Positions 5,784-59,229 are shown, numbered from the stretch's first letter. The stretch is 64,000 nt of DNA from an uncultured Gammaproteobacteria bacterium (GCA_964504365.1 CAZDDW010000003.1:8031-72030), one strand, 5' to 3'. Numbers and translations are program-made. Notes: generated from the sequence alone by a model not told the origin.

Positions 5784-6050
5784 ATGCCAAAAACAAAAAT
5801 ACCCCGGTCAACCGGGGATACCATTCGTGCAGTGTTCGCTGGCGAGATCGAGCCAAGGCCGGATCCTGAACGTGACCGAGTTACTCGGCAACTGACCGAA
5901 GAAATGTGCGGCACGTACGCCATGGATCACATGCCGAACGTCGGTGCTGAGGGTCCGGTTCGTTCCGAAGAGAATCGTGTCGAAGGTGTTGGTGGCGACC
6001 GCCGCAGCCATCTGCGATCGCCACACTCACGAGCACATCGCCGCCGCTAA
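5784..6050 (+). CDS. small GC-rich hypothetical protein (88 aa) with an Arg/His-rich C-terminus
   Basis: Strong ribosome-binding site aaggagg 8 nt upstream of the ATG, a hairpin terminator immediately downstream, and a GC content far above its neighbours. Confidence 0.4.
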   Translation: MPKTKIPRSTGDTIRAVFAGEIEPRPDPERDRVTRQLTEEMCGTYAMDHMPNVGAEGPVRSEENRVEGVGGDRRSHLRSPHSRAHRRR

Positions 6051-6058
6051 CCAACTTC

Positions 6059-6080
6059 TAGACCCATCTCGGGTCTTTTT
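6059..6080. terminator. bidirectional hairpin terminator between the small ORF and recO
   Basis: tAGACCCatctcGGGTCTttttt, flanked by A's on one side and T's on the other. Confidence 0.55.
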
Positions 6081-6081
6081 C

Positions 6082-6855
6082 TTATACCAAACTAGCAACT
6101 CTTAATGATGTGGCTGGAATGGTTGGAAAATGACAGACCAGGAGTGATTCGACCAGGTCGTGGAATTCGAGCAAGGTCTGGCCAGGGATAGTTGGTTTAA
6201 GAAATTCTGTTGGTGATTCACGTGAAGCAAAGCGGATTAACTTCAAAGCGTCATCTGATATCTCACGCGCAGCAAACCAACTTTCCTGATCAACCATAAC
6301 ACAGCGAGAACAGACTACCCCGCCCTTGAGTCCATGCCAGCGATACGTACCCGGCTCGATCTCTAACTTGCAAGACAAACATCGCGTCAACTCTGGACGA
6401 TATCCTGAAATGCCGAGCAACTTCAAAGCAAAGGCAGCGAGCAAGAATCCAGCACGTTCTTGCGAGATCTCTGGCACACTTTCAATAAATTCAAGCCACT
6501 TTAAAACCTCCTGATACAACACTGGATCCTGCTCTTCGTGACGTGTAGCCAGGTCAACCAGATGCAGTGTCTGGCGCGCCAGGAGCAAACGATTTATGTC
6601 TGTGCAGATTGGATGATACGCTCGCAATCGCTCTACACCAGCAACAGTGTCGACTACACGGCCTCGTACTACCAACAAATCCAGAATCGCGAACGATTCG
6701 AGATGTGGACCAAGCTTGGCTCCAATCTTACGCGAGCCACGAGCATGCAATGACATCTTGCCTCGTTCCTCTGTCAAAACAGAATAAACACGATCATGCT
6801 CTCGATGATCGCGTCGGGCTAAGACTATTCCGTTTGTTTGAAACAGGACTGACAT
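6082..6855 (-). CDS. recO: DNA repair protein RecO
   Basis: 257 aa with an N-terminal OB fold (MSVLFQTNGIVLARRDHREHDRV) and a C-terminal Cys4 zinc motif (CLSC...CSRC). Confidence 0.75.
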   Translation of the reverse strand: MSVLFQTNGIVLARRDHREHDRVYSVLTEERGKMSLHARGSRKIGAKLGPHLESFAILDLLVVRGRVVDTVAGVERLRAYHPICTDINRLLLARQTLHLVDLATRHEEQDPVLYQEVLKWLEFIESVPEISQERAGFLLAAFALKLLGISGYRPELTRCLSCKLEIEPGTYRWHGLKGGVVCSRCVMVDQESWFAAREISDDALKLIRFASRESPTEFLKPTIPGQTLLEFHDLVESLLVCHFPTIPATSLRVASLV

Positions 6856-7247
6856 TATTTGTTTTGATCTAAATACGCTTGCAAGACTAACATGGCAGCC
6901 AGGGCATCGTCCGCAGCCTCAGCACCTTCTTCACGCTGCAAGCGAATGCTCTCAGCGGTTGTGTAGCGTTCGTCTTCTTCGTGGACTGGGATCGAGACAA
7001 CCTCTTGTAAACCTTTAATAAACGACCGTGTCTTTTCTAATTGTGGCGAACCTGGCCCTTCAACCGTAGACAACGGAACCCCTATAACAATCTCATCGAT
7101 CTGTTCAACAGCGATTCGGTCGGCCAGTTTTTGATAAATGTTCTCAACATTCTGGATTACATCCAAAGGCACAGCAATACCGGCTTCTGAATCCCCAAAA
7201 GCTAGTCCGATCTTTTTATCTCCATAGTCGATTCCGAGATACCTCAT
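6855..7247 (-). CDS. ruvX: Holliday-junction resolvase-like RuvX/YqgF
   Basis: MRYLGIDYGDKKIGLAFGD, the RNase H-like YqgF signature. Confidence 0.75.
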   Translation of the reverse strand: MRYLGIDYGDKKIGLAFGDSEAGIAVPLDVIQNVENIYQKLADRIAVEQIDEIVIGVPLSTVEGPGSPQLEKTRSFIKGLQEVVSIPVHEEDERYTTAESIRLQREEGAEAADDALAAMLVLQAYLDQNK

Positions 7248-8020
7248 ACTGGTAGTGGGGTTAAAATCTCAGGACCGGATTCTGTGGCTACCATCGTCAC
7301 TTCAAAGTGAGCCGCCAGCGAGCGATCTGCAGTCACAGCTGTCCAGCCGTCGTCTGCGGTCTCTAATAAATATTCTCCGGCTGTAATCATTGGCTCAAGG
7401 GCCAAACATTCACCTTCTACAATTTTTTTCTTCTTCATTGCTCGATCATAAAAATTTGGAATCCGTGGTTCCTCATGTACTTCATGACCGACTCCGTGTC
7501 CGACCAATTGTCGTACGATTCCATATCCATGCGGTGCAATCGACTTTTCAACAGCCATACCGATATCTGCGATCGTGCCACCGACATGCACAGAAGCAAC
7601 AGCGTCGAGCAAAGCCTGCTTTGTCGCAGCCATTAGATCAGAAGCCTCCTTTGACACATTACCCACTGGCACAGTCACTGCCATGTCCGTGTATAGATCT
7701 TTATATTTGCACCCAAGATCAAGTCCAACAATATCGCCTTCTTTGAGTTCAATGTCGCGATCTGCGGTTCCATGAACAACTTCTTCGTTTATGGAAACGC
7801 ACAATGAACTTGGAAATGGATTGTCATCATGTGGCGTAGAGAAATTCAAAAATGAAGGCTCACCGCCCCCTGCCCTGATCTCAGCTTCTGCGATCTTGTC
7901 CAGCTCAGCAATCTTTGCACCCGGCCGCACCGCTTTGACCGCTTTGCCTAGTGCCTGTGATAGGATCTGCCCACCTTCTCGCATTAACTCAATTTCCTGT
8001 TCAGTCTTCTTTATAGCCAT
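7244..8020 (-). CDS. map: methionine aminopeptidase type I
   Basis: MetAP metal-ligand motifs are present, including DIVGLD and HGVGHEVHE. Confidence 0.85.
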   Translation of the reverse strand: MAIKKTEQEIELMREGGQILSQALGKAVKAVRPGAKIAELDKIAEAEIRAGGGEPSFLNFSTPHDDNPFPSSLCVSINEEVVHGTADRDIELKEGDIVGLDLGCKYKDLYTDMAVTVPVGNVSKEASDLMAATKQALLDAVASVHVGGTIADIGMAVEKSIAPHGYGIVRQLVGHGVGHEVHEEPRIPNFYDRAMKKKKIVEGECLALEPMITAGEYLLETADDGWTAVTADRSLAAHFEVTMVATESGPEILTPLPV

Positions 8021-8022
8021 AT

Positions 8023-8511
8023 TTATTTAACATCTTCAAAGATCCCTAATTTTTTATTCTTTTTAACTTTGTCCCACTGGAAAATATGGCCATTCATGGC
8101 GATATAAACACCGGCCGGCATAGACTGAGCAAAAGCAATAGCACTGCCCAAATTAAATAATCCATCAGAACTACCGAACTTCCAAGGAACCATTGCTCCA
8201 GTCAACACAACGGTCTTGTCTTTAACTTTTTCAGCAACCACTTCTGCGGTATCAACCATAGTGTCAGTACCGTGAGTAATAACAATATTCTTCTCATCAA
8301 CCTCAGCACAATTCTCAGCAACTGTTTTTCGATCTGCATCAGTCATATCCAAAGAATCAATCATCATTAAAGTGCGCATTTCTACATCAACCAAATTTCT
8401 TCCCAACTTAAGCATTTCTGGCAAGTGTGTGTCTTTAAAAAACAACTCACCGTTTAGCTCATTATACTCTTTATCAAACGTCCCTCCGGTTAGAAAAATT
8501 CTTACTTTCAT
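8023..8511 (-). CDS. L-asparaginase-family N-terminal-domain-only protein (162 aa)
   Basis: FLTGGTFDK, ITHGTDTM and VVLTGAM match the asparaginase/glutaminase N-domain motifs; no C-terminal domain follows. Confidence 0.5.
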   Translation of the reverse strand: MKVRIFLTGGTFDKEYNELNGELFFKDTHLPEMLKLGRNLVDVEMRTLMMIDSLDMTDADRKTVAENCAEVDEKNIVITHGTDTMVDTAEVVAEKVKDKTVVLTGAMVPWKFGSSDGLFNLGSAIAFAQSMPAGVYIAMNGHIFQWDKVKKNKKLGIFEDVK

Positions 8512-21463: not shown

Positions 21464-21542
21464 AGTATATTTTAAGTTGAGCTTATCTTAGCTTATTTAC
21501 CCAAACTGTCAAGTGCATATTCTGGGGTTAAGTAGTCGATCA

Positions 21543-21734
21543 GGCCGGCCACTCCTCTTGTCGTCAGAAGCAAAGAGCCGAAGGGTTTTGAATTGTGGAA
21601 CGATCGGAGGCCGGTGTCCTTACTAATTTTCAATTTTCATTCAATAACCAATGACCATTGTGACATTGAAAATTCAATGTAAATTCTAAATTGAAAATTG
21701 TAAATTTATTATCTGAGGCTCCCTGTGGCCGGCC
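21543..21734. mobile_element. MITE-like element copy 1 (about 190 bp, terminal inverted repeats GGCCGGCCAC...GTGGCCGGCC)
   Basis: The left 75 bp (GGCCGGCCACTCCTCTTGTCGTCAGAAGCAAAGAGCCGAAGGGTTTTGAATTGTGGAACGATCGGAGGCCGG) and right end (CTGAGGCTCCCTGTGGCCGGCC) are near-identical to the ends of a second copy at 39009..39218. The termini are inverted repeats and the interior is AT-rich. Confidence 0.5.
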
Positions 21735-21740
21735 AAAAGA

Positions 21741-21770
21741 AAAGGCCCCGCCGCAGTCAAGCGACGGGGT
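21741..21770 (-). terminator. terminator of the 21798..23015 gene
   Basis: ccccgccgc-agtcaa-gcgacgggg hairpin followed by TTTTCTTTT on the minus strand. Confidence 0.5.
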
Positions 21771-23130: not shown

Positions 23131-23159
23131 ATAATAACACGTTTAAGCTTATCTGTCAA
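23131..23159 (-). promoter_or_regulatory. consensus sigma70 promoter of the 21798..23015 gene
   Basis: The minus strand reads TTGACA gataagcttaaacgtgt TATTAT, with AT-rich UP-like sequence (aagcttatttaagc) upstream. Confidence 0.5.
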
Positions 23160-39008: not shown

Positions 39009-39218
39009 GCCGGCCACTTCTCTTGTCGTCAGAAATAAAGAGCCGAGGGGTTTTGAATTGTGGAACGATCGGAGGCCGGACTATCAAATCCACTCTATAA
39101 ATAAGTATCATTTTAATGTTCCGGCCGACGCCGAGCGAGGCAATGATCATTCTCGACCCAACCACCCTGCGGGCCGAGCGCTTCCACAATCAAAACCCTG
39201 AGGCTCCCGTGGCCGACC
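39009..39218. mobile_element. MITE-like element copy 2
   Basis: Same terminal sequences as copy 1 (CCGGCCACTTCTCTTGTCGTCAGAAATAAAGAGCCGAGGGGTTTTGAATTGTGGAACGATCGGAGGCCGG ... CTGAGGCTCCCGTGGCCGACC). Sits in the 3' untranslated region of the MFS gene, upstream of ugd. Confidence 0.5.
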
Positions 39219-40403: not shown

Positions 40404-43310
40404 TTAGATAACAAAGTTAATCAATCGTCCTGGGACGTAAACTGTTTTCTTGATTTTATTGTCTGCAACAAACTTCTGAACATTCTCTTCTGCCAAAGCC
40501 AGCTTCTCTGCCTCCTTCTGGTCTAGATCTGGAGCTACCATTATTGTACCACGTAACTTTCCATTAACCTGAATCGGCAACTCAATCGTTTCGTCCTTAG
40601 CCAACTTTGGATCAAACTCTGGCCAAGCCTCAAACGTGATCGACTTCTTGTTTCCTAACTGCTGCCAGATCTCCTCAGTCACATGTGGAGCAAACGGTGC
40701 AAACACGGTCAGAAACTTAGCAAGGCTTTCTTTTGTAATCGAACCAGTGTCTTGTATCTTGTTAACCAGAATCATCATCTGCGATACGGCTGTGTTATAT
40801 TTCATTTCTTCGATATCAGAAGTTACCTTCTTGATTGTCTTGTGCAGCTCGCGAGTCACATCTTCGTCTTCTTTCTTTGCAACCATGTCCTGCAAATTCC
40901 AAACCTTTTCCAGGAACCTACGCACACCAACTACACCAGTCGTACTCCAAGGAATTGCTTCGCTAAAAGGACCCATGAACATTAAATACACTCGCAGCGT
41001 ATCAGCCCCATACTGCTCAACAATCTCATCCGGATTAATCACATTGCCAAACGACTTAGACATCTTGCGCCCGTCCTCAGCCAGAATCATCCCATGTGAA
41101 GTGCGCTTTTGGTATGGTTCGCTAGTTGGCACATGCCCTTGGTCGTGCAGGAACTTATTCCAGAAACGAGAGTAGAGCAAGTGCAGCGTGGTGTGCTCCA
41201 TTCCGCCGTTGTACCAATCAACTGGCATCCAATTCTTCAACTTATCTTCAGCCGCAAACACCTTATCGTTCTTTGGATCGATATAGCGCAGGAAATACCA
41301 ACTAGACCCAGCCCAGTTTGGCATCACATCAGTCTCACGCCTGGCAGGACCACCACATTCAGGACAAGTCGTGTTCACCCAATCGTCAACATTAGCCAAC
41401 GGTGATTCACCAGACTCAGTTGGTTCGAACTTCTTTACCTCAGGTAATTCAACTGGAAGCTGTTCATCTTTAACCGGCACCCAACCACCGTTTCGTTTCG
41501 AACCTTCATTATCCCAATCCGACACCGGCTTCTTATAACACTCTTCACAATGAACCAAAGGAATCGGCTCACCCCAATATCGTTGTCGAGAAAAAACCCA
41601 ATCACGTAACTTGTAATTAACTGCGGCCTTGCCCTTACCTTCTTTTTCCAACCACTGATTCATCTTCTTAATCGCCTCTGGCGTGTGCAGACCATCAAGA
41701 AAATCCGAATTAATACATTCGCCTTCACCAACAAAAGCCTGACCTTGATCTGAGTCAAGCTCCGACTTCCAACACCGCAGTTCAGAACAAGCCATACTCT
41801 CTTCTGTAATCTCACAACGATCAACCCAGCGTATTTCATGGGCTGCTTTTTCCTTATCCTCAACATCCACTTGCTTTTCACTTTTCAGATCAAACACGAT
41901 CGCGGTACTGTAAGCAACGCGATTCTCTTTTTTATGAGCAGCATAATATTCTGAACGAATCTCCTGACTCATAAACTTTCGAAATTCCAAATCAACATAT
42001 CCTGTTTCTTCTTCAATCTCACGTTTAGCAGCATCGATCAAATCCTCTCCATCATCAACCCCACCTAGAACAAAAGTTGTCCAAGGGTGTTTTTTCCAAT
42101 CAAGACACAAATATTTGTCAGTCTTTGGATTATGGACAATAGCCATTATCATTTTTCGAGTCACAATCTTCTTGCCTTTTTGTGGTGGATTATTTTTATC
42201 ACATACGCAAGGTGCTACCACTTGTTGAATCAGTAGACCAAACTTTATAGCAAACTCAAAGTCACGCTCATCATGCGCAGGAACAGCCATGATCGCACCA
42301 GTACCGTAGCCCATCAAAACATAATCAGCGATCCAGATTGGAATCTTTTCATTGTTCACTGGATTAGTCGCATACGCGCCAGTAAACACTCCTGTTTTTT
42401 CTTTTGATACATCACCGCGCTCAATATCCGTTTTCGCGGCAGCCTCTTTCTTATACTTGGTCACGGCCTTCATCTGCTCCTTGGTCGTGATCTGCTCTAC
42501 TAACTCATGCTCAGGCGCCAAGACCATATATGTAGCTCCAAACAAAGTATCCGGACGAGTTGTAAAGACTTTCAAATACGGTGTCACTCCGCCGGACTTT
42601 TGATCAACCTCAAACTCAACAATCGCACCTTCAGATCGGCCGATCCAGTTAGCCTGCTGCGCTTTGATCTTGTCCAAGAAATCAACAGTATCCAAATCAT
42701 CTAACAACTTGTCGGCATAGCGAGTGATCTCCAACATCCATTGCTCACGATCCCGCTTCTCAACTTCCCCACCACAACGCTCACACTTTCCATCAACCAC
42801 TTCCTCATTAGCCAAACCAATCTTGCAAGACAAACACCAATTAATCGGCATCTTGGATTTGTAAGCCAAACCAGCCTTGAACAACTGCAAGAAAATCCAT
42901 TGTGTCCATTTGTAATAATTCGGATCTGTCGTGTCCACCTCACGCGACCAATCAAAAGAAAAACCAATAGACTTCAGCTGACGCTTAAAGGTTGCGATGT
43001 TCTGCTGAGTCGCCTCACGCGGATGAGTCCCAGTCTTGATCGCGTAGTTCTCGGTCGGCAAACCAAAAGCGTCCCAACCAATTGGATACAAAACATTATG
43101 CCCCTCAGCTCGTCGCTTACGCGCCACAATATCCAGCGCGGTGTAAGATCGCGGATGTCCAACGTGCAAACCGGCTCCTGACGGATAAGGAAACTCAACT
43201 AAACAAAAATACTTCGGCTTGTCCGAATTATCCTGCGCTTCGTATAATTTTTTCTCCTCCCAAAACTTTTGCCATTTAGGCTCGATTTCTAAGTGGTTGT
43301 ACCGATCCAT
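40404..43310 (-). CDS. leuS: leucyl-tRNA synthetase carrying an inserted Nudix hydrolase domain
   Basis: HVGH, TRPDT editing motif and KMSKS are present. About 165 extra residues lie between AHDERDFEFA and NSDFLDG, containing a perfect Nudix box GGVDDGEDLIDAAKREIEEETGY. Confidence 0.9.
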   Translation of the reverse strand: MDRYNHLEIEPKWQKFWEEKKLYEAQDNSDKPKYFCLVEFPYPSGAGLHVGHPRSYTALDIVARKRRAEGHNVLYPIGWDAFGLPTENYAIKTGTHPREATQQNIATFKRQLKSIGFSFDWSREVDTTDPNYYKWTQWIFLQLFKAGLAYKSKMPINWCLSCKIGLANEEVVDGKCERCGGEVEKRDREQWMLEITRYADKLLDDLDTVDFLDKIKAQQANWIGRSEGAIVEFEVDQKSGGVTPYLKVFTTRPDTLFGATYMVLAPEHELVEQITTKEQMKAVTKYKKEAAAKTDIERGDVSKEKTGVFTGAYATNPVNNEKIPIWIADYVLMGYGTGAIMAVPAHDERDFEFAIKFGLLIQQVVAPCVCDKNNPPQKGKKIVTRKMIMAIVHNPKTDKYLCLDWKKHPWTTFVLGGVDDGEDLIDAAKREIEEETGYVDLEFRKFMSQEIRSEYYAAHKKENRVAYSTAIVFDLKSEKQVDVEDKEKAAHEIRWVDRCEITEESMACSELRCWKSELDSDQGQAFVGEGECINSDFLDGLHTPEAIKKMNQWLEKEGKGKAAVNYKLRDWVFSRQRYWGEPIPLVHCEECYKKPVSDWDNEGSKRNGGWVPVKDEQLPVELPEVKKFEPTESGESPLANVDDWVNTTCPECGGPARRETDVMPNWAGSSWYFLRYIDPKNDKVFAAEDKLKNWMPVDWYNGGMEHTTLHLLYSRFWNKFLHDQGHVPTSEPYQKRTSHGMILAEDGRKMSKSFGNVINPDEIVEQYGADTLRVYLMFMGPFSEAIPWSTTGVVGVRRFLEKVWNLQDMVAKKEDEDVTRELHKTIKKVTSDIEEMKYNTAVSQMMILVNKIQDTGSITKESLAKFLTVFAPFAPHVTEEIWQQLGNKKSITFEAWPEFDPKLAKDETIELPIQVNGKLRGTIMVAPDLDQKEAEKLALAEENVQKFVADNKIKKTVYVPGRLINFVI
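41715..42210 (-). other. Nudix (MutT-like) domain embedded in leuS, about residues 368..532
   Basis: Nudix box G-x5-E-x7-REUxEExGU matched exactly, with flanking strands of the Nudix fold (MAIVHN, AIVFDL, HEIRWV). Confidence 0.6.
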
Positions 43311-43317
43311 AAGTTTT

Positions 43318-43357
43318 CTGGTTATCTGGTTATCTGGTTATCTGGTTATCTGGTTAA
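43318..43357. repeat. tandem octamer repeat (GTTATCTG, 4.5 copies) followed by three AGACAAC repeats, upstream of leuS
   Basis: ctggttatctggttatctggttatctggttatctggtta, then tagacaactagataaccagacaacaagacaac. Confidence 0.7.
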
Positions 43358-43448: not shown

Positions 43449-43478
43449 TTGACAAACCCATCTTTCCATGCTTAAATA
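43449..43478 (+). promoter_or_regulatory. sigma70-like promoter (TTGACA, 18 nt, TAAATA)
   Basis: Lies upstream of the 43605 gene. Confidence 0.4.
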
Positions 43479-43604
43479 CCTTCTCATGCCACGCGCTGGG
43501 CAAGGCTCTCACAGGGTACTACGACCTCACCGGTCCTGGGCTCTACCAAATGGGACTTGATCCCTGATCCTTGTACTAGCGTCTACCACGAAAGGAGATG
43601 TGCC

Positions 43605-44900
43605 ATGAGTCGTGACGAAAAAGAAACCCCTCTTTCCAAATTCGTATCCACCCTGGGACGGCTATTGCCGAAGTTCGAACGCCGAGAGCTTCCGCTCTCA
43701 CGTTTGGACAACGCGCGCATGGCTCTGGATGGAGCAGCCGTCCCGCTTCCGAACAGCGCTGGACCGCAGCTACCGACCAAACTCTACGGCGGCGTCAACG
43801 AGGTCGCTCTGGCTGCTGATGGCACCAGATTCGTGACCGGAAAGCGACACGGGAGAAAAGGTGAAAAGGTCGTTCTCTTGAGGGCGATGCCGGGCAGCGA
43901 TCAGTTCGAAGAGGTCGACTCGGCACCGGTCATCGAGCGACTCTTCGTACCAGAAGGATCGAACAAGCCAGCCTACATGCGCGCCATCGAACGTGGTGTC
44001 AGCCATGCCGAGTGGGTCTGGAACGGCCTGACTCTGCCCGGCGACCAGAACGACATGGACACTCGCCCGCTGTTCTGGACCAATGATCAAGGGATCAACG
44101 GGGCCGTAATCACCAAGGGAAAGTTGTACGTGTGGCATTCCGGCCAGCGGCACATCGTTGGTCTTCCTCACCGATACAGAGAATACAAACCAACTCACAT
44201 CCAGCTCATCAGTAAAAGCCTGTTCCAGATCTGGGGTCTTCCAGCCCACCAGGATGTGGTTGTCTGGCGCGACAAGGTGGGTCCTGCGGGAATGTACATT
44301 GACCGTGAATCAGTAGTCAGGGGCGTCAACGCCGAGCCCTGGTTCTTGGCCCGAGCCAACGCTGCCCATGGCCCTGTCCACGTCTGCAACATGGACGGGC
44401 TAGAGCGGATGCTCGAACACAAGCCCGAGGGCATCTGGACCGCTCCTGGGAAGATCTTCGTCCTGGAAGAGACCCTGACTGGGCCCGACGGTCCGAGCTG
44501 TCGCGTCCATGAGGTCATCTCAGGCTGGAGTTCAGACTTGCTCGACCAGCAGGTCGAGCAAGTCTGGGCACTGAGTGGTCACTCCAGTGACATCGCCCTT
44601 CACAACCGAAACTCGGGAGTGCTGCGCTATCTGAGTGAAAGTAGCAGCGTCATCGGACAAGCACCGGCAATGTCACGCGCCAGTGTCCGACAGATGGGCA
44701 ACCTGTTCGTCTATCAGATCGGCGATACCTTCGCCTTCCTGAAAGACACCAACATCGAATTCTCAGCCCACAGAATTCCGCGACAAGAACTGGGGCTCGA
44801 ACATCTGGTGCTCATGAACGACGGGACGATCCAGGGCATAGTCAAATCCGGTACGAGTGTGGTGACGTATACCTTCTTCGATCCAAGCAAGCGCGCGTAA
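43605..44900 (+). CDS. GC-rich hypothetical protein (431 aa)
   Basis: Start at MSRDEKETPL with ribosome-binding site aaaggag; hairpin terminator cccccg-aacgact-cggggg plus T-run at 44905..44940; no recognisable motif. Confidence 0.45.
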   Translation: MSRDEKETPLSKFVSTLGRLLPKFERRELPLSRLDNARMALDGAAVPLPNSAGPQLPTKLYGGVNEVALAADGTRFVTGKRHGRKGEKVVLLRAMPGSDQFEEVDSAPVIERLFVPEGSNKPAYMRAIERGVSHAEWVWNGLTLPGDQNDMDTRPLFWTNDQGINGAVITKGKLYVWHSGQRHIVGLPHRYREYKPTHIQLISKSLFQIWGLPAHQDVVVWRDKVGPAGMYIDRESVVRGVNAEPWFLARANAAHGPVHVCNMDGLERMLEHKPEGIWTAPGKIFVLEETLTGPDGPSCRVHEVISGWSSDLLDQQVEQVWALSGHSSDIALHNRNSGVLRYLSESSSVIGQAPAMSRASVRQMGNLFVYQIGDTFAFLKDTNIEFSAHRIPRQELGLEHLVLMNDGTIQGIVKSGTSVVTYTFFDPSKRA

Positions 44901-45008
44901 CGGATCATCTCCCCCCCCGAACGACTCGGGGGATTTTTTATTGAAACATAAAAGGACACCCGCAAGGAGTGCCCCACGTACGGGTCAACGGCCGTTGACC
45001 CCTACATT

Positions 45009-45364: not shown

Positions 45365-46618
45365 TTAGATGATATTTTTGTCCTTCATTGCTTGTTCAAT
45401 CCGTTTCATGGCCACGATAAATGCGCCTGTTCGAAGATCAATCGACTTTTCTTTCGCCACACTCGATACGGCTGCGAACGACTCTTGCATGATCGGCTGC
45501 AACTTTCCAAAAACATCTTCCTCAGTCCAGCGCTCGCCTTTAAGATTCTGTTCCCACTCAAACGAGCTAACGGTCACACCACCGGCATTGGCCAGAATAT
45601 CCGGGAGAACTGGGACACCTTTTTCAAACAAGACCTGATCGGCTTCTGGGGTAATTGGTCCGTTGGCCAGCTCTAAGATAACTTTTGTCCGAACACGATC
45701 AACGTTTTCTTTTGTAATTGAATTTTCAAGAGCTGCAGGAACTAATACATCGCACTCGACCTCAAGCAATTCTTGTTTTGATATCTGGGTACCAGCGTAA
45801 AAATCATTTACTGGCTTGCGTTCAGCTTTGTGTTCCATCAACTTCGGAATGTCTAGACCGCTTGGATCCTGGATACCACCTTGCGAATCTGAAACTGCGA
45901 TCACTTTATAACCAGCTTCGTGAAATAGTTTTGCGATGAACTGTCCAGCGTTTCCAAATCCCTGGACAACCACAGTCGATCCTTGGGCCAGGTTCAATTC
46001 TTTGTTCATCTCTTCGAACACATAAAAACCACCTTGTGCTGTTGCCGTCCCTCGACCTTCGCTGCCTCCTTGCTCAACCGGCTTACCAGTGATCACGGCA
46101 CCAGTAGTATCGCCAGAAATCTTTGAATACTCATCAGAAATCCAGTTCATGATTTGTGGTGTGGTGTTCACGTCTGGTGCTGGGATATCTCGATCAGGTC
46201 CAATCACATCAGCCATGCCACGAGCCCAGCCGCGAGACAACTTCTCGATCTCAGTCTCAGACAGCTCTTTTGGATTCACAGTAATACCACCCTTGCCTCC
46301 GCCAAGCGGGATGTTAACCACAGCACATTTCAAAGCCATCCAAAAAGCCAAGGCCTTAACTTCGTCAATATCCGTATCCTGATGATAACGAATACCACCC
46401 TTGTACGGGCCGCGGGCTGAGTTGAACTGGACACGATAACCTTCGTAGACTTCAAGCGAACCATCATCTTTACGTACCGGGATCGAGATACGGACCTCGC
46501 GCTCTGGCGCAGCCAGTACATCAAGAAAGTCGTTAGTAAAATCGCCGACCTCTGAGGCTCGGCGAAGTTGCTCTAATGCATTTTGAAATGGATTGGTCAT
46601 ATTATTCTTGTTCATCAA
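45365..46618 (-). CDS. gdhA: glutamate dehydrogenase
   Basis: KGGIRYH, PLGGGKGG and the GFGNAG Rossmann motif. Confidence 0.85.
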   Translation of the reverse strand: MMNKNNMTNPFQNALEQLRRASEVGDFTNDFLDVLAAPEREVRISIPVRKDDGSLEVYEGYRVQFNSARGPYKGGIRYHQDTDIDEVKALAFWMALKCAVVNIPLGGGKGGITVNPKELSETEIEKLSRGWARGMADVIGPDRDIPAPDVNTTPQIMNWISDEYSKISGDTTGAVITGKPVEQGGSEGRGTATAQGGFYVFEEMNKELNLAQGSTVVVQGFGNAGQFIAKLFHEAGYKVIAVSDSQGGIQDPSGLDIPKLMEHKAERKPVNDFYAGTQISKQELLEVECDVLVPAALENSITKENVDRVRTKVILELANGPITPEADQVLFEKGVPVLPDILANAGGVTVSSFEWEQNLKGERWTEEDVFGKLQPIMQESFAAVSSVAKEKSIDLRTGAFIVAMKRIEQAMKDKNII

Positions 46619-47848: not shown

Positions 47849-47958
47849 TAATGACCAATGATCAATAACCAATTACCCAGATAATAATCAATGACCGAAT
47901 TTTCGAACATTGGTTATTTGGTAATTATTTTGATCATTGTTATTTGGTTATTGGTTAT
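47849..47958. repeat. ~110-bp AT-rich repeat copy A, built from inverted ATGACCAATGATCAATAACCAATTACC / GGTAATTATTTTGATCATTGTTATTTGGTTATTGG arms around TTCGAA
   Basis: About 85 percent identical to 61530..61641. The spurious plus-strand ORFs at 47891 and 61599 share the peptide IILIIVIWLLVILL. Sits between the infB stop and the trxA start. Confidence 0.7.
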
Positions 47959-47963
47959 TCTAC

Positions 47964-49994
47964 TTAGCGTTTTGAAACCCCTTCAATTTCAAGAACCTTT
48001 TTCTCTGCCTTTTCTGAATATAGTTCAAACACATCACCAGGCTCAGCTTTTACTTTTCCTTTATATTGAATACCACACTCCTGGTTCTTCAAAACCTCGC
48101 TGGTATCTTGTTTGTTGGCCTGGAGCTTAAGCATGATCGCCTCACCAATTATCTCATCTCCGCGCATCAGGCGCAACTTAGAATCTTTCAAAGCTGTACC
48201 TTCAATCACCTTAGCACCAATAATCCAACCGTTATCAGTCTTTTTAAAATTCATCAGCACTTCAACTTTACCAGTCTCTGTAACTACGATTTCCTCTGGC
48301 ATTAATTTTTCAAGACGTTCAACCATGTCTTCGAAAATCTTGTAAATAACCGAATTCTCCATGATTTCAACATTTTTATCACGAGCCAACTCCGCAGCCG
48401 TACCAGTTGGTTTAACACTAAAGGCGTAGATCACGGCCTTACTTGCCTCAGCTGCCAAAACCTCAGAGTCTGTCACATCTCCAAGACCCTTGTCCAAAAT
48501 CTTCACCTCAACGTGCGGATTTTTTTGCAGCTTCTCAATCATCCCAAGCAGTGCCTCCAAAGAACCAAGCACATCGGCTTTAATGATCATGGTCAAACAC
48601 GGCTTGGTCTGTTCCTCATCTTCAACAACAGGGGCAATCTTAGTCGCAGTAACCTCATCAATTGCAGCAGATTTAACTGTCTTGAACTTTGTTTTTTTCA
48701 AATCTTTTATATTTTCTGGAACTTCAATCACATCACCCACAGTTGGTGCAGCCTTGAAGCCAAGAACACGAACCGGGGTCGATGGTAATGCCTCTTTAAC
48801 ATTTTTATTCTGCCAATCTTGCATTGCCTTAACTTTTCCATAAAGCATGCCGCGCACACCAAGCGGATCACCAACGCGGAGTGTTCCAGTCTGAACCAAT
48901 GCAGTAACCACAGGCCCAGCACCTGGATCAATTTTAGAATCAATCACTGTTCCAATTGCTGTGCGTTCTGGATTGGCCACAATCTTTTCTTTTTCCATGT
49001 CAGCCACCAAAATCAACATGTCTAAAATATCGTCGATACCAATCTGTTTCTTTGCCGAAATTGGAACCATGATCGTATCCCCTCCCCAATCTTCTGGATT
49101 CAAACCTTTTTCTGCTAGCTGGCCTTTTACCATGTCAATATTCTGTTCCGCTTTGTCGATCTTGTTCAATGCAACAATAAAAGGCATGCCTGATGCCTTG
49201 ATAATATCAATTGCCTCGCGAGTCTGCGGCTGAATTCCATCGTCCACAGCAACAACCAAAATTGCAATATCAGCCACCTTGGCTCCACGCGAACGCATGA
49301 CCGTAAAAGCTTCATGTCCAGGAGTATCAATAAATGTCAGCTGTCGGTTCTTGCGCTCAACCTGATAAGCACCGATGTGCTGAGTAATTCCACCAGCCTC
49401 TTCGTCAACCACGTTAGTTGTTCTAATAGCATCAAGCAATTTGGTCTTTCCATGATCAACGTGTCCCATGACAACAACAACCGGAGGTCGCTCAACTGCA
49501 TCTTTTTTATCTTCCCCTTCCAAAATCTCACCAACTCGTTCTAGATCTGCCTCCTGTTCTTCATCTGGACTTTCCTCCTCAGCCTTAGCTTCAAACCCAA
49601 GGTCAGAAGCAATAATGGCTGCGGTTTCAAAATCGATCGTATCATTCAACGAGGCCAAGATTCCGGCCTTCATCAACTCTTGCATTACCTTGGCAACCGG
49701 CAATTCCAAACGTCCGGCAAATTCACGCACAGCAATTGTTGGCGGCAAAGCAACTGGCTTTTTTGGAGCCTGATCTTCTGCTCCAGCTCCGGCTGCTTGC
49801 TGCTGCTGGGCCTCACGTTTCATCTTCAGTCTCTGTCGTCGACGATACTCACCCCAAGCATTCATGATCTGATTAGCAATCCGATCATCAACCTTAATCG
49901 CTTTCTTTCCAATACTAAAACCGAGCTCAGGCAACTTCTCCCTAAGCTCTTCTGGGTTAACATTTAATCGTCGTGCTAGTTCAGTTACATTCAT
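47964..49994 (-). CDS. infB: translation initiation factor IF-2
   Basis: [16 protein letters not shown] and NKID motifs; C-terminal beta-barrels. Confidence 0.9.
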   Translation of the reverse strand: MNVTELARRLNVNPEELREKLPELGFSIGKKAIKVDDRIANQIMNAWGEYRRRQRLKMKREAQQQQAAGAGAEDQAPKKPVALPPTIAVREFAGRLELPVAKVMQELMKAGILASLNDTIDFETAAIIASDLGFEAKAEEESPDEEQEADLERVGEILEGEDKKDAVERPPVVVVMGHVDHGKTKLLDAIRTTNVVDEEAGGITQHIGAYQVERKNRQLTFIDTPGHEAFTVMRSRGAKVADIAILVVAVDDGIQPQTREAIDIIKASGMPFIVALNKIDKAEQNIDMVKGQLAEKGLNPEDWGGDTIMVPISAKKQIGIDDILDMLILVADMEKEKIVANPERTAIGTVIDSKIDPGAGPVVTALVQTGTLRVGDPLGVRGMLYGKVKAMQDWQNKNVKEALPSTPVRVLGFKAAPTVGDVIEVPENIKDLKKTKFKTVKSAAIDEVTATKIAPVVEDEEQTKPCLTMIIKADVLGSLEALLGMIEKLQKNPHVEVKILDKGLGDVTDSEVLAAEASKAVIYAFSVKPTGTAAELARDKNVEIMENSVIYKIFEDMVERLEKLMPEEIVVTETGKVEVLMNFKKTDNGWIIGAKVIEGTALKDSKLRLMRGDEIIGEAIMLKLQANKQDTSEVLKNQECGIQYKGKVKAEPGDVFELYSEKAEKKVLEIEGVSKR

Positions 49995-50024: not shown

Positions 50025-50440
50025 AAAGTAAAGACCGCCGGGTTAATCGGCGGTAAGGACGCAGAACGTCCTAGAGATTCGGAAGTGGCCCAGAACAGGA
50101 ACCGTTGCAGTTCCTGCCTGGGACCACCCGACCACGTCGCATAGCCGTCGCACGACTTTTCATCGTCGGGTATTACCCGGCCAGCTGGCTCTTGGGAAAC
50201 GGTGTTCCGGCGCAAGCAGTGCCCGACCCTTTGGTAGTATTGCGCCACCATCGGTCGAGATTATTCGCGTTTTGTGGTTTCCCAGTCTGCCCCCTCGTAG
50301 CGAATAGCGTGCGTGGGCGTAAGAGACGTGGGTTTTGAAAGAGGATGGTGCGGCCCGGGGTGGTCGGGGTCGAGATCCGGACCGCACCAAACGGGACAGG
50401 CAACAGGAGGTGGGGCACGTTTTAGCCTCCTATCGCCGGG
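50025..50440 (-). ncRNA. GC-rich ~400-nt non-coding block, candidate structured RNA of unassigned class (RNase P RNA, tmRNA or an infB leader considered)
   Basis: No consistent reading frame (five short overlapping ORFs across frames), GC much higher than the flanks, many local helices (for example GGTGCGG...CCGCACC and CCCAGAACAGGAAC..GTTCCTGCCTGGG), and a minus-strand intrinsic terminator (accgccg-attaac-ccggcggt plus CTTTACTTTTT) ending 30 nt before the infB ATG. Confidence 0.35.
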
Positions 50441-50499
50441 CAAAGATTAAGATATCATGATTGTTGATTTACGTCAACAATGTGCTAGGATATGAGCAT

Positions 50500-51156: not shown

Positions 51157-51172
51157 GACCCGAGAAGTGAGA

Positions 51173-51565
51173 CTAGAATTCGTCAGGGGAGACCAAGTGC
51201 TGCAAAGAGGCATAGACCGTCTGAATTGCCCCGATCGTCTCAGGATCCTTCAAAACCTCGAAAAGCTTGTCCAAGGGAATACCTTGGCTTTTGCACAGCA
51301 TGATCAGCCTGGTCAGGCTGGAAGCTTGAGACATCATCAAGATAGAAAAACAGGACTCTCGATCTACCCCCATGCTCTCGGCGATACCGTCGAGCAAGGT
51401 CATCAGGTGGTCAGGCAGAGAAATCCAGTTCCCCTCTCGCGACAGAGAATCCTGGTAGACATTTGCCAGATATTCTTCGACCGTGATTCCACGAGCTGCG
51501 GCAGCCTCGACTGCTTGCGCGTGAAATTCATCTTCGACCTCGATTTCGATAGTGACTCGTGGCAC
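51173..51565 (-). CDS. GC-rich hypothetical protein whose N-terminus looks like a ribbon-helix-helix fold
   Basis: GTG start with ribosome-binding site gaaggga; N-terminus VTIEIEVEDEFHAQAVEAAAARGITVEEYLANV (strand plus two helices); convergent with truB. Confidence 0.35.
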   Translation of the reverse strand: MPRVTIEIEVEDEFHAQAVEAAAARGITVEEYLANVYQDSLSREGNWISLPDHLMTLLDGIAESMGVDRESCFSILMMSQASSLTRLIMLCKSQGIPLDKLFEVLKDPETIGAIQTVYASLQHLVSPDEF

Positions 51566-54729: not shown

Positions 54730-55275
54730 CTAATCCAGTTCCCGCAGCGTTTCCATTATTTCCTCCCAATACACTTCTTGATTAACAAATGGTGAGAAAA
54801 TAATTAATCCATCTTCACGCTCTTGAATGTAATTTGTTTTAGTTACCTCACCCATTGCTGTTGTATTCTCTAATGCAGTCAAAATAATACCACCTTGGTT
54901 GATCTGCTCTTCTAGAACAATCTGCCCAGTTCCCTCAACACCACCATACCCACTAGCTGTGACTTCTTTAAACTGATCCAAAGTCATCCCTTGAGCAAAG
55001 AAAGCGTACATGAGTTGTTCTGCGCTCTCAGCTACAGTAGGATCATAAATTGAGAACAGCAAGCGCATCTCTGCACTCAGATAATAGATGTTGTCGTCGG
55101 CTTCTTTGTTGTTGAATGTATACTTGCCTGGATATTGGAAAGCAAAATTAAATTCTTCACTTTCAAAAATTTCCCAAGTCGGCTGAACAGTTGGCAGGTT
55201 CTTTTTTGGACCACCACAACCAAGTCCAGTAGTGACAAGCAAGGTTAATACTAATACTGAAAGTATATAGCGCAT
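54730..55275 (-). CDS. hypothetical lipoprotein
   Basis: Signal peptide followed by the lipobox LGCGG. Confidence 0.55.
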   Translation of the reverse strand: MRYILSVLVLTLLVTTGLGCGGPKKNLPTVQPTWEIFESEEFNFAFQYPGKYTFNNKEADDNIYYLSAEMRLLFSIYDPTVAESAEQLMYAFFAQGMTLDQFKEVTASGYGGVEGTGQIVLEEQINQGGIILTALENTTAMGEVTKTNYIQEREDGLIIFSPFVNQEVYWEEIMETLRELD

Positions 55276-56942: not shown

Positions 56943-57025
56943 CGCGCCTCACTGGCGCTTTTTTTGTTGGCTAAACAGACCGCCGACCAATAAAAAACCG
57001 GCCCTGGAAAGGGTCGGTGCTGTGT
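56943..57025. terminator. convergent terminator module A: plus-strand hairpin plus T7, then a minus-strand hairpin (ccgaccc-tttcca-gggccgg plus T6)
   Basis: Homologous to module B at 58048..58150 (shared GCGCC.ACTGGCGCTTTTTTTGTTGGC...AGACCGC.GACCAA...AAAAAA). Confidence 0.55.
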
Positions 57026-57045: not shown

Positions 57046-57711
57046 CTACTCAGAGTCGCTTTTCTGGGCCTGTCTCATCATGTACATGGCCAAGCCCTCA
57101 CGTTCGAAGGCCTGCAGGATCTTCTCAGCGTGGTCTAGAGCTGTACGTCGTTTGTCGACCCACATCCTAACCAGACAGAAAACCTGGTACGCAATCTGTT
57201 GCCCGTCTTCCTCGGTCTTGGCACAGATCTCAGACAACGGAGTCTCTTTGACAGTCACCTTGACCGCACGGTCATAGCCATGATCACACACGAAGTCGAC
57301 TCTGACCAAGACCCAGCGAGCCGTCCGCGTCAGCCCCCAAAAATGATGACACCCTGTCTCCTGGTCATCAGCGATAACCGTACCTAGGTTGCGGCTCCGT
57401 GACACAAAGAGGCCCTTGCTCTTCAGGCTCGAGACTCCATCAACCGAAGACACCAACTCGGGCTCATCATCCTCAATCTTGTGCTGGGACGAAGAGCTTC
57501 CGCCCCCCTTCTCGCCTTTGAGACACCTGACACCGCCCAGGCTCCAGAGCTTGATGTTTCTCTCCAGGTCTGGAGCAAGGACCCTGGCTCTTGCCTCCAG
57601 GATGACGGCCCAGTCCTCCTCGGTTACAGGTTCACGACGGGCCAGCTGTCTTTGTCCAACTGACAATGCTTCCAAATACTCCTCATAGGAGTCGAATCCT
57701 GGCACGGGCAT
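57046..57711 (-). CDS. GC-rich hypothetical protein (222 aa)
   Basis: Start at MPVPGFDSYEEYLE with a perfect ribosome-binding site aaaggagg and a terminator downstream; no recognisable motif. Confidence 0.45.
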   Translation of the reverse strand: MPVPGFDSYEEYLEALSVGQRQLARREPVTEEDWAVILEARARVLAPDLERNIKLWSLGGVRCLKGEKGGGSSSSQHKIEDDEPELVSSVDGVSSLKSKGLFVSRSRNLGTVIADDQETGCHHFWGLTRTARWVLVRVDFVCDHGYDRAVKVTVKETPLSEICAKTEEDGQQIAYQVFCLVRMWVDKRRTALDHAEKILQAFEREGLAMYMMRQAQKSDSE

Positions 57712-57866
57712 ACCCGGCCTCCTTTCGTCACCCAAAGGGCAAACCCAATGGTGATATTAACTTACTACAATATATAAATCCCATCAAATGTATCATCAGC
57801 ACCTGGTGCAACTCGGCGCTTTTTTCTTTGTCTGATTTCATGCTATGCTAAATACAAGGAGGATTA

Positions 57867-58034
57867 ATGGGAGAGAAATCGAATCTTTGGACAGAATTCA
57901 AGGAATGGCTTGGAGGAGACGCTTTGTTCTTTCTCCGCCTCGCCTTCATCGTTCTTTGCCTCTGGGCCCTCGTACCGTTCGTCTTCGCATTCTTGGAAAC
58001 ACTCTTTGGCGGAAGCACTTCGCAATCCTGAGAC
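57867..58034 (+). CDS. small membrane protein (55 aa: MGEKSNLWTEFKEWLGGDALFFLRLAFIVLCLWALVPFVFAFLETLFGGSTSQS)
   Basis: Translated by hand; ribosome-binding site aaggagg 4-5 nt before the ATG, one transmembrane helix, followed directly by terminator module B. Not in the ORF track because it is shorter than 60 aa. Confidence 0.45.
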
Positions 58035-58047
58035 AATTCCTTCCGCC

Positions 58048-58150
58048 TTGCGCCACCTGGCGCTTTTTTTGTTGGCCGAATAGACCGCTGACCAACAACC
58101 CGCCCGAAGCTTTAGCGAAGGCGGGTCATTCAATAAAAAATCGGCCAGGA
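58048..58150. terminator. terminator module B (gcgcc-acct-ggcgc plus T7), containing an inserted CGAAGCTTTAGCGAAGG-loop hairpin and a minus-strand hairpin
   Basis: Duplicate of module A, with an extra hairpin cccgcCCGAAGCTTTAGCGAAGGcgggt at 58100..58128. Confidence 0.55.
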
Positions 58151-58380
58151 CGACCGATGTGTCTGTGTCGGGCAATCCGACAAACAAGGCAGATGAGATC
58201 AGGAATGTCATGAGAAAGAACAGGAGCAGGACCAGACAAAGAACAACAGCCCAAGCAGACTTTCTGGTCACAGCAAGTGCAGTAAACAATCCGGACAGGA
58301 AAGAGCTAGCCGCAATCATTAGAAACAAGATCATCATTTCCTCCAAAACCAACCTTACACCAACCCGCTAGAAAAGAAAA

Positions 58381-58405
58381 ATCCCTCGTTGCCGAGGGGC
58401 GATGA
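58381..58405 (-). terminator. terminator of the 58434 gene
   Basis: ccctcg-ttgc-cgaggg hairpin followed by ATTTTTCTTTT on the minus strand. Confidence 0.5.
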
Positions 58406-58433
58406 GGGACAGGTCCAATCAAGGGCGATCGGA

Positions 58434-58640
58434 CTAGATGGGCTTGTACTGCCAGCCCTGCCGTTCGCAGAACTCGGCCACCGAGACAGAGCCCTCGCGG
58501 AGTCGTTGGTGCAGTTCGTCGGCCTCGTCAGCCGGGATCACGGGCGGGCGAGTCGGATTGCCCTGGTCGTCGAAGAAACGGATCGGATGTGTGCGTGCGT
58601 TGGATGCTGGACCGGCTTCCCAGTCGGGTTTGGCCATACT
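58434..58640 (-). CDS. GC-rich small hypothetical protein (about 68 aa)
   Basis: ATG preceded by ribosome-binding site aggagg with 5 nt spacing; sequence MAKPDWEAGPASNARTHPIRFFDDQGNPTRPPV...; terminator downstream. Confidence 0.4.
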   Translation of the reverse strand, partial: SMAKPDWEAGPASNARTHPIRFFDDQGNPTRPPVIPADEADELHQRLREGSVSVAEFCERQGWQYKPI

Positions 58641-58717
58641 CACCTCCTAATTAGACCATATCATTATTTTACCAAAAATAAAAATCCGACCAGGTGGTCG
58701 GAATGAGTACGTGCGGT

Positions 58718-59149
58718 CTAGGCGCTTGCAGGTACGGCAGCGGGTGGGACCAGGCGGAAGATGCGTGCAGCGAAGATCGAGCAACTGTGAGCAAAGACCC
58801 TTGCTACACCACTCTTCTGGCTGACCGCGACCAGTGGGCTACCTGCCCTATAGCTGATCCAGGGTCCGGGCTTCATCATCTTCGCCGGAATCTCGTGCTC
58901 GGCACCTTCGGCGTAGGCGGGCAGGAGCTGATCATCTTGCTCGGCCATCCTGCGTACGAGCACGGTTCGCCAGGAACGATCGTCAGACCACACCTGGAGC
59001 TGCTCACCGATCGTTCCCTCTCGCGGGAATTCGATGCTGTCCGTCTGGACTGGAGCTTCTCCGGTTCGATCCTCGAAATATCGTCTGTCGTTTTCGCGTT
59101 CTCCCGTGTCTCCCATGAGAACGAACACTCCGACCGGCTGACTACTCAT
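58718..59149 (-). CDS. GC-rich hypothetical protein (about 144 aa)
   Basis: Start at MSSQPVGVFVLMGDTGE with ribosome-binding site aaggagg. Confidence 0.45.
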   Translation of the reverse strand: MSSQPVGVFVLMGDTGERENDRRYFEDRTGEAPVQTDSIEFPREGTIGEQLQVWSDDRSWRTVLVRRMAEQDDQLLPAYAEGAEHEIPAKMMKPGPWISYRAGSPLVAVSQKSGVARVFAHSCSIFAARIFRLVPPAAVPASA

Positions 59150-59229
59150 GAGGCCTCCTTGCTGTCGTAGCTCACGACTAAAAGATCTTGCCACAAAAAC
59201 CTGATACTGTCAATTCCTGGTATTTCAGG

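Follow-up and report, generated by a model that had tools for sequence, protein, structure and literature searches.

We describe here the gene content and base composition of a 64,000-nt stretch of DNA (the window; GCA_964504365.1, CAZDDW010000003.1:8031-72030, all positions being counted from its first nucleotide), and in particular about ten single-gene cassettes at 52–65% GC, termed islets A to I, which are scattered through a genome of about 44% GC. When murA was compared with species-representative genomes, the closest locus was that of a Candidatus Uhrbacteria genome (89%), followed by a genome labelled Gammaproteobacteria by its depositor (84%) and by three genomes labelled Uhrbacteria or Patescibacteria (66%); genomes labelled Saccharibacteria gave only about 50–54%. 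In the ribosomal operon, L15 directly follows S5 and L30 is absent, an order typical of bacteria of the Candidate Phyla Radiation (CPR). By these similarities, the window comes from the chromosome of a bacterium belonging to Candidatus Uhrbacteria (Patescibacteria/CPR). A first-pass annotation, made from the sequence alone, had suggested a Saccharibacteria-like epibiont; the murA comparison contradicts this, and with an Uhrbacteria backbone the premise of an actinobacterial host does not apply. The GC range among Uhrbacteria relatives is wide, the locus L015 being 59% GC. Among the loci used for comparison, L014 and L095 are from the closest genome, GCA_043811105.1, L096 and L097 are from one JGI relative, L100 and L101 are close sisters at the fusA-tuf region, L019 is from a more distant relative, and L013 is from a sister with C-like and D-like genes.

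The GC content of the whole window is 45.8%. Its 74 genes have a median GC of 0.443 (robust standard deviation, 0.044) and a median GC at third codon positions (GC3) of 0.407 (robust standard deviation, 0.084). The per-gene calculation bore out the annotation's view of high-GC genes in a lower-GC backbone, as islets A to F, G1, and G2 gave GC 0.56–0.65 and GC3 0.58–0.85 against these medians, with robust z values for islet A of 4.7 (GC) and 5.2 (GC3). The elevation is limited to the islet coding sequences; intergenic DNA has an overall GC of 0.44, and the 150-bp flanks of the islets range from 0.40 to 0.53. GC3 is evenly high along each islet gene, and the order GC3 > GC1 > GC2 indicates that these are genuine coding sequences. 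The dinucleotide signature of the islets also departs from that of the backbone (δ* 143; null 32±10). Along the window, GC3 forms a gradient from ribosomal proteins (0.26–0.38) through other housekeeping genes (about 0.40) and faster-evolving genes (0.45–0.55) to the islets (0.6–0.85), and low-GC orphan genes are also present (4601–5740, 54730–55275, and a gene labelled J136). Among the intervals listed in the annotation, those of A, B, C, D, E, F, G1, and G2 stood. Enrichment was weak at 51173–51565 (islet I) and at 5784–6050 (islet H), where it stems from amino acid composition (GC 0.58, GC3 only 0.52), and it was absent from 32169–32945 (GC 0.49), part of a listed interval of 32169–34383, which encodes a recognizable class-I glutamine amidotransferase. 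None of the islet proteins gave anything above threshold in Pfam, NCBIfam, PHROGs, or PADLOC.

The islets and the backbone also differ in their expression signals. The mean match to AAGGAGGTGA was 5.3 nt in 10 islet genes and 1.1 nt in 64 backbone genes (Mann-Whitney p=1e-6), confirming that the islets have strong AGGAGG-type ribosome-binding sites and the backbone weak ones; a Shine-Dalgarno match was absent in 43 of the 64 backbone genes and reached at least 5 nt in 7 of the 10 islet genes. Across 114 genes from four genomes, GC3 of at least 0.55 was associated with a Shine-Dalgarno match of at least 5 nt (odds ratio 13, p=2e-5). The backbone genes usually start in a U-rich or C-rich stretch followed by U-AUG, and the backbone starts of the sisters, the 59%-GC L015 included, likewise lack a Shine-Dalgarno sequence, while AGGAGG-type sites are also found on other GC-rich orphan genes of the sisters. 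A Shine-Dalgarno-poor genome with a Shine-Dalgarno-led subset of genes was accordingly seen in the window and the sisters. All members of the E family carry ACGAAAGGAGnnGUGCnAUG, every E paralog retains the ACGAAAGGAG leader, and two E paralogs with backbone-like GC3 still have the Shine-Dalgarno site, which argues that the site is a family trait rather than mere compensation for GC-rich mRNA. Terminator-like hairpins were found 3′ of nine islet genes (A, B, C, D, E, F, G1, G2, and I), in agreement with the annotation. Its claim of individual promoters was borne out in part: TTGACA-N16/17 promoters are recognizable 5′ of four islets, A, B, E, and I. The 11 islet stop codons comprise seven TAG, four TAA, and no TGA, and the 63 backbone stop codons comprise 44 TAA, 15 TAG, and four TGA. 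High-GC Actinobacteria most often use TGA as a stop codon; the lack of TGA and the predominance of TAG in the islets agree with a pressure towards G acting on resident genes, and not with import from Actinobacteria.

Islets A and B are located in the fusA-tuf spacer. Islet A (21798–23015, minus strand; GC 0.65, GC3 0.85) lies between fusA and J136/tuf and encodes a 405-aa protein that crosses the membrane once and contains an acidic linker, a coiled coil, and, at its C-terminus, a globular domain. Downstream of a promoter-like site, TTGACA-17-TATTAT (23131–23159, minus strand), come some 110 nt of leader and the Shine-Dalgarno sequence GAGGAG, and an intrinsic terminator is located at 21746–21769 (minus strand). 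Islet B (23235–23918, minus strand; GC 0.56, GC3 0.64) encodes a 227-aa single-pass membrane coiled-coil protein and has a promoter at 24002–23974 and a terminator at 23211–23192 (both minus strand). The products of A and B have in common the C-terminal motif LxY..AY...LA..P and the succession of transmembrane helix, acidic linker, coiled coil, and globular domain. In L100, which is closely similar to the window in tuf (96% nucleotide identity), J136 (93% amino acid identity), intergenic DNA (89–93%), and flanks (88–96% nucleotide identity), the 3′ end of an A-like gene (38% amino acid identity to A, GC3 0.89) lies directly upstream of J136/tuf. In L101 (J136 88%), the end of a B-like gene (41% amino acid identity, GC3 0.73) lies directly upstream of J136. 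The A terminator is about 90% conserved 3′ of both the A-like and the B-like gene. Judging from their sequences, A and B are paralogs in a tandem array with turnover of its members; paralogy among the other islets was rejected, as no other sequence relation was found.

Between the A terminator and the J136 promoter there is an insertion of about 200 bp (21536–21745), bounded by GGCCGGCC, that is absent in L100. A 71-nt element within it recurs with 94% identity at 39009–39079, upstream of another gene, and three of the few single-nucleotide polymorphisms (SNPs) in the population lie in the insertion, which looks like a miniature mobile element.

Islet C (30261–30983, plus strand; GC 0.62, GC3 0.81; Shine-Dalgarno AAGGAG) encodes a 240-aa acidic protein and is followed by a terminator-like hairpin (31037–31058). 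In the product, a conserved and well-modelled N-terminal α/β domain of 170 aa precedes an acidic tail that is disordered; a structural-neighbour search with the α/β domain model gave nothing informative. In L013, a C-like gene (28–32% identity, GC3 0.75) is located between GAT1 and murA and is divergent from murA as in the window, and another C homolog shows 59% identity with GC3 0.81. Islet D (33043–34344, minus strand; GC 0.56, GC3 0.58), which has no Shine-Dalgarno site, encodes a 433-aa protein, is followed by a terminator at 33035–33011 (minus strand), and adjoins class-I glutamine amidotransferase genes (32169–32945 and 31062–31802). Its ortholog in L014 shows 61% identity, and L013 carries a divergent GC-rich D-like gene (GC3 0.71) resembling ATP-grasp. 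Two profile matches were obtained, both below cut-off, PGM1_C (E 0.013) and, in the D-like protein of L013, CPSase_L_D2 (E 0.07), and the D profile matched nothing among solved structures. D is probably a divergent ATP-grasp enzyme that acts with the adjoining amidotransferases, a proposal based on these profile matches and the gene neighbourhood.

Islet E (43605–44900, plus strand; GC 0.58, GC3 0.68; terminator at 44914–44932, plus strand) encodes a 431-aa protein in which two N-terminal helices precede a closed β-propeller, the best fold matches of which are nine-bladed. The closest solved folds are the nine-bladed β-propellers of eIF2A and eIF3b; the likeness is in the scaffold only, as E differs from them in its 4–8% identity, the absence of a Pfam match, its membership of a bacterial orphan family, and its extra N-terminal helix pair. 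In L095, the E ortholog is located between the leucyl-tRNA synthetase (LeuRS) and rhodanese genes exactly as in the window, with GC3 0.64 against 0.32–0.44 in the backbone neighbours, and in L096/L097 the same spacer is filled by four tandem E paralogs. GC-rich E homologs have GC3 0.61–0.65, the adjoining backbone genes 0.29–0.44, and the Shine-Dalgarno-led E paralogs as a whole range from 0.41 to 0.68. E identity was 49–54% where that of LeuRS and translation initiation factor IF2 was 76–86%, and the ordering of the distances was congruent, as would be expected if E were inherited vertically but evolved several-fold faster.

The E promoter, TTGACA-17-TTAAAT (43449–43477, plus strand), is followed by a structured leader of about 125 nt (within 43449–43604, plus strand) that ends in ACGAAAGGAGATGTGCC-ATG. 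This promoter and leader precede every gene of the E family (in the window, L093, L095, and the four L096 copies), and the leader is more conserved than the protein. In its consensus fold, the start-codon region base-pairs with the 5′ end to form an outer helix, and six compensatory pairs occur within an inner hairpin; in the alignment, 98% of the cells were paired, against 30–44% in slid controls, and seven pairs showed compensatory changes. An Rfam search gave no match to the leader, which is a candidate for a new cis-regulatory RNA. The spacer that E has in common with LeuRS also contains an 8-nt tandem repeat, GGTTATCT, in about five copies (43313–43356) just upstream of the LeuRS start. 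LeuRS itself (40404–43310, minus strand, 968 aa) has an internal NUDIX-hydrolase domain with the NUDIX box GGVDDGEDLIDAAKREIEEETGY in its translation, and Pfam NUDIX is recorded within the LeuRS orthologs of L095 and L096.

Islet F (57046–57711, minus strand; GC 0.56, GC3 0.66; Shine-Dalgarno AAGGAGG; terminator at 57002–56982, minus strand) encodes a 221-aa orphan protein. It is neighboured by three further orphan genes on the minus strand: G3 (57864–58328; small, hydrophobic, about 155 aa; GC 0.50, GC3 0.54; Shine-Dalgarno GGAGG), G2 (58434–58631; 65 aa; GC 0.64, GC3 0.74; Shine-Dalgarno AGGAGGT; terminator at 58398–58383, minus strand), and G1 (58718–59149; 143 aa; GC 0.60, GC3 0.65; Shine-Dalgarno AAGGAGG; terminator at 58702–58685, minus strand). 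The strand of G1 is ambiguous, as gene callers in one sample took a plus-strand open reading frame at 58694–59170. G1 is 125 bp from tRNA-Lys (59274–59350), and the F/G island is the only one that adjoins a tRNA gene. A 42-nt direct repeat (88%; 56952–56993 and 58057–58098), which includes a terminator hairpin, brackets F and part of G3, in the island beside tRNA-Lys and tRNA-Arg (59274–59550). This repeat may be the scar of a duplication or may resemble an attachment site. Islet H (5784–6050, plus strand; Shine-Dalgarno AAGGAGG) encodes a basic protein of 88 aa with a high content of Arg, Gly, and Pro. Islet I (51173–51565, minus strand; GC 0.52, GC3 0.62; promoter at 51622–51595 and terminator at 51161–51145, both minus strand) encodes a 130-aa protein, residues 5–43 of which match the uncharacterised PHROG family phrog_5333 (E 1.3e-4); this N-terminal stretch is possibly ribbon-helix-helix-like. 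Between infB and truB there is, in addition, a GC-rich (0.55–0.58) non-coding stretch of about 400 nt (50030–50450, minus strand) with a promoter-like site at 50477–50449 and a terminator at 50054–50034 (both minus strand). Its predicted fold is strongly structured (z −6.4), it has no Rfam match, and it is not conserved in L095 or L096. It shares in the compositional mosaic of the window and is a candidate for an RNA specific to this lineage, or may instead be a relic. The infB-truB spacer of L096 holds an ISL3 transposase.

Exact-protein look-ups gave 12 contigs, drawn from no fewer than eight independent samples of JGI and ENA and from two assembly pipelines, in which the islets and their junctions were present at 99.75–100% identity; the contigs differed only by a few isolated SNPs or runs of N. 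A 69-bp insertion in A of contig L002 was rejected as a variant because it is a scaffold gap with Ns. Ongoing hypermutation and a diversity-generating retroelement were also rejected, as the population is nearly clonal, no reverse transcriptase is among the gene calls, and there is no template/variable repeat pair. No integrase or transposase was found among the gene calls of the window, no flanking repeats were found around A to E, and within the 64 kb there are no internal or dispersed repeats of islet sequence and no silent cassette array.

Homologs of the islet proteins were sought in several collections. A HMMER scan of 1.84 billion representative proteins, in which A, C, and E joined end to end served as the query, matched A only to its own fragment, C to 10 clusters, and E to eight. 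The C and E matches are all hypothetical proteins, and those with a name or a genomic context are all in Uhrbacteria/Patescibacteria genomes; one source name was labelled Pseudomonadota by its depositor, and all other names are Uhrbacteria or Patescibacteria. Top hits in Actinobacteria, for which the annotation had proposed a check, were thus not obtained, the named or contextualised homologs of A, C, and E being confined to this clade. In a word-index protein search, A likewise matched only a fragment of itself; the same search with B, C, E, F, G, H, and I concatenated gave nothing and did not recover even the queries, which shows that the database searched does not contain these proteins and makes this a weak negative. 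No match was obtained for any islet protein against the phages and plasmids of GenBank by tblastn, nor for A or the E family in viral contigs. Metagenome scans gave nothing with the E-family alignment and one chance coiled-coil match with A, the collection evidently being without samples that contain the organism.

In the sister genomes, members of the E, C, D, and A/B families lie at the intergenic sites at which they are found in the window, with C in L014 and A/B in L019 as exceptions; these exceptions apart, the absence from sister sites that marks a recently acquired island was not seen. The synonymous divergence (dS) of the backbone between the window and the closest sister is 1.8–3.2 or not computable, that is, saturated. 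The cassettes are inherited at fixed loci, where copies are gained and lost in tandem, and they stay GC-rich and Shine-Dalgarno-led across this saturated backbone divergence. Substitutions polarised among the window, L100, and L101 in J136, intergenic DNA, and tuf are AT-biased (u/v = 1.5), with an equilibrium GC of 0.39. By a crude two-state argument, neutral amelioration should have reduced the GC3 excess of the islets several-fold in every lineage; the excess, undecayed despite saturated dS, suggests that their GC-richness is maintained rather than being the fading mark of an import. We therefore think it probable that the islets are resident, vertically inherited, clade-restricted, fast-diverging orphan cassettes whose composition and expression signals are distinct from those of the backbone. 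The annotation had proposed vertical phylogeny and backbone-like codon usage as a joint test of foreign origin; the phylogeny proved vertical, but the codon usage is not backbone-like, and the islets may therefore still stem from an unsampled GC-rich pool by way of a very ancient capture.

Several points weigh against this account or limit it. The fusA-J136 gap of L019 is only 110 bp, with A and B absent, and the GAT1-murA spacer of the closest genome, L014, is empty, with no C, so that gains and losses do happen. GC3 is at the level of the backbone (0.41 and 0.47) in two of the four L096 paralogs of E, which means that GC-richness is not obligatory for the E family. The islet dinucleotide signature is nearer to that of an Acidimicrobiia locus (δ* 75) than to that of a GC-rich Uhrbacteria locus (δ* 145), which speaks for foreign ancestry, for instance through ancient capture from a pool of GC-rich, Shine-Dalgarno-using genes that has not been sampled. 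For F, G, H, and I, the protein-homolog test was the word-index search that failed to recover the queries themselves. The population of 12 contigs is nearly clonal, with no visible ongoing variation, and the window showed neither recombination tracts nor donor cassettes. Neither the window nor any fetched locus includes an rRNA gene, and the anti-Shine-Dalgarno end of the 16S rRNA lies outside the window.

The alternative that survives best, and which the annotation had favoured as repeated acquisition from a high-GC donor, is that the islets arrived separately with their own sites from a Shine-Dalgarno-using donor, either an actinobacterial host or an unsampled mobile pool, and have not ameliorated. 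It would readily account for the atypical GC, GC3, and dinucleotide signature, for strong Shine-Dalgarno sites in a mostly Shine-Dalgarno-free genome, for single-gene units with their own terminators, for the absence of A/B from L019 and of C from L014, and for the position of the F/G island beside tRNA-Lys. We nevertheless consider it unlikely, because no homolog was found outside Uhrbacteria/Patescibacteria in the 1.84 billion representatives, phages, plasmids, and viral contigs, because syntenic orthologs are GC-rich at saturated dS with E divergence tracking the backbone, and because the promoters, the E leader, and the A terminator are conserved within the clade. In addition, none of the 11 stop codons is TGA, there are no integrase, attachment-site direct repeats, or mobility genes, and the organism does not belong to Saccharibacteria. 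Recent transfer from Actinobacteria is already refuted in the case of C, D, and E.

The annotation had offered a dispersed accessory system as its other reading, in which the islets would work together, for example in host attachment or defence, and be co-regulated through shared Shine-Dalgarno translation. The shared Shine-Dalgarno, promoter, and terminator architecture lends some support to a dispersed class of genes, and the membrane coiled-coil proteins A and B together with the β-propeller E would suit surface or interaction roles. A joint function, on the other hand, appears improbable: only A and B are related in sequence, no known defence family was matched, the closest genome retains D and E without C at its locus, so that co-occurrence is not strict, and copy number varies independently, as with the four E copies of L096.

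Relaxed selection is a longer shot. If the backbone were held AT-rich by selection for preferred AT-ending codons or for unstructured mRNA, as suits initiation without a Shine-Dalgarno site, weakly constrained Shine-Dalgarno-led genes could drift towards a neutral equilibrium richer in GC, in keeping with the GC3 gradient from ribosomal proteins to islets and with the wide GC3 span (0.41–0.68) of the Shine-Dalgarno-led E paralogs. Such drift is difficult to reconcile with an intergenic GC of 0.44, a predicted equilibrium of 0.39, and the low-GC orphan genes at 4601–5740, at 54730–55275, and in J136; mutation, moreover, is AT-biased in nearly all bacteria. The compositional contrast alone would also fit a chimera of GC-rich foreign reads on a low-GC scaffold, created by assembly, binning, or co-assembly (the artefact that the annotation named as refuting the islets), but the identical junctions in the 12 independently assembled contigs and the conservation of islet-flanking promoters and terminators in diverged sisters make this explanation practically negligible.

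For resident, vertically inherited cassettes, the following scheme may be proposed. A typical cassette runs from a sigma-70-like promoter through a long leader, a strong Shine-Dalgarno sequence, and a GC-rich coding sequence to a stop codon, TAG or TAA, and an intrinsic terminator, and is wedged between housekeeping operons whose genes mostly lack Shine-Dalgarno sites. A persistent fixation bias favouring GC would hold the islets off the backbone equilibrium (about 0.39–0.42 GC); its most plausible cause would be that repair is GC-biased while divergent alleles and paralogs frequently recombine or undergo gene conversion, with selection on mRNA as an alternative. Because Shine-Dalgarno initiation differs from initiation in the backbone, the cell can probably control the islets as a separate class, and E is predicted to gain an extra layer of control from the conserved leader, which would sequester the start codon. 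The role of the islets is likely a variable interaction with host, phage, or environment, not housekeeping. More tentatively, and with some doubt on our part, Uhrbacteria genomes might consist of two compartments, an AT-leaning, Shine-Dalgarno-free housekeeping backbone and a dispersed set of GC-rich Shine-Dalgarno cassettes with rapid turnover, whose products would be interaction proteins specific to the clade. The cassettes would be controlled through anti-Shine-Dalgarno availability together with leaders of individual genes, such as the E leader, and would be kept GC-rich by strong GC-biased conversion at loci prone to recombination. The mosaic would then reflect compositional equilibrium within a genome, not a scar of transfer, and might extend to other CPR bacteria.

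Some further features were observed in the window and its relatives. In another member of Patescibacteria (L098, 484–3900), GC reaches 0.62–0.63 and GC3 0.78–0.79 in two genes, one for a 205-aa orphan protein and one MYG1-exonuclease-like, whose neighbours are at GC 0.38–0.40, and the mosaic may be widespread in Patescibacteria. A major facilitator superfamily transporter and a glutamate dehydrogenase (39223–40401 and 45365–46597) are much nearer to their L096 counterparts (77% and 89%) than to those of L095 (58% and 74%), whereas LeuRS and IF2 are equidistant from the two (about 80%), which suggests backbone recombination among related Uhrbacteria. The window also contains a 115-nt AT-rich intergenic repeat of ACCAAT/GGTTAT-like units at 47850–47964 and 61530–61645 (92–94% identity), two tandem paralogs of a class-II Asp/Asn-type tRNA synthetase (1786–4477, minus strand), and an asparaginase-domain gene (8023–8511, minus strand) between adk and map in the ribosomal operon.

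A search of the literature gave no description of a pattern of GC-rich, Shine-Dalgarno-led islets in Uhrbacteria or CPR bacteria, and partial parallels exist elsewhere. In the model attributed to Lawrence and Ochman, atypical islands are said to reflect horizontal transfer followed by amelioration. The islets resemble such islands in departing from the genome in GC, GC3, and dinucleotides and in being accessory, without an assigned function, and patchy among relatives. Atypical islands are usually AT-richer than the core; the islets, in contrast, are GC-richer, are single genes without mobility functions and with no donor clade in the databases, and lie at conserved sister sites unameliorated at saturated dS. 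The vls locus of Borrelia burgdorferi is a GC-rich antigenic-variation locus in a low-GC genome, and its GC-richness is linked to frequent gene conversion. The islets are similarly fast-evolving, probably surface-exposed, and far GC-richer than their genome, but they differ from vls in the absence of silent cassettes or internal repeats in the window, in the absence of variation among the 12 population samples, and in comprising several unrelated families, some of them probably cytoplasmic. GC-biased gene conversion has reportedly been described in recombining bacterial genes and multigene families (by Lassalle et al. 2015 and Galtier 2003); the islets share the high GC3 of such loci and their occurrence in tandem copy-variable families (A/B and the four E copies), but their excess of 20–45 points far exceeds the few percent of GC3 reported for bacteria, and conversion was not observed here. 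Bacteroidia have Shine-Dalgarno-poor translation with a sequestered anti-Shine-Dalgarno, few Shine-Dalgarno-led genes, and regulation of rpsU. The housekeeping genes of the window and its sisters likewise lack Shine-Dalgarno sequences while a small set has strong sites, a split that implies a separately controllable translation class. The phylum is different, however, the Shine-Dalgarno-led genes here are orphan accessory genes rather than ribosomal-protein genes, and the 3′ end of 16S rRNA is outside the window.

The combination of genes that are GC-richer than the core, syntenic through saturated divergence, restricted to a clade, and coupled to Shine-Dalgarno use appears to be new. Compositional outliers are often read as recent transfer; here that shortcut misleads, since these are old, syntenic, clade-specific genes, and composition-based callers of horizontal gene transfer and binning filters would discard such islet genes. 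If the pattern is genome-wide, sequence alone would pinpoint the fast-evolving genes on which the symbiotic way of life of this CPR lineage, not yet in culture, most likely depends, the CPR genome would show two-tier Shine-Dalgarno use, implying class-specific translational control, and the islets would provide a bacterial test case of locus-specific GC-biased fixation with an unusually large effect.

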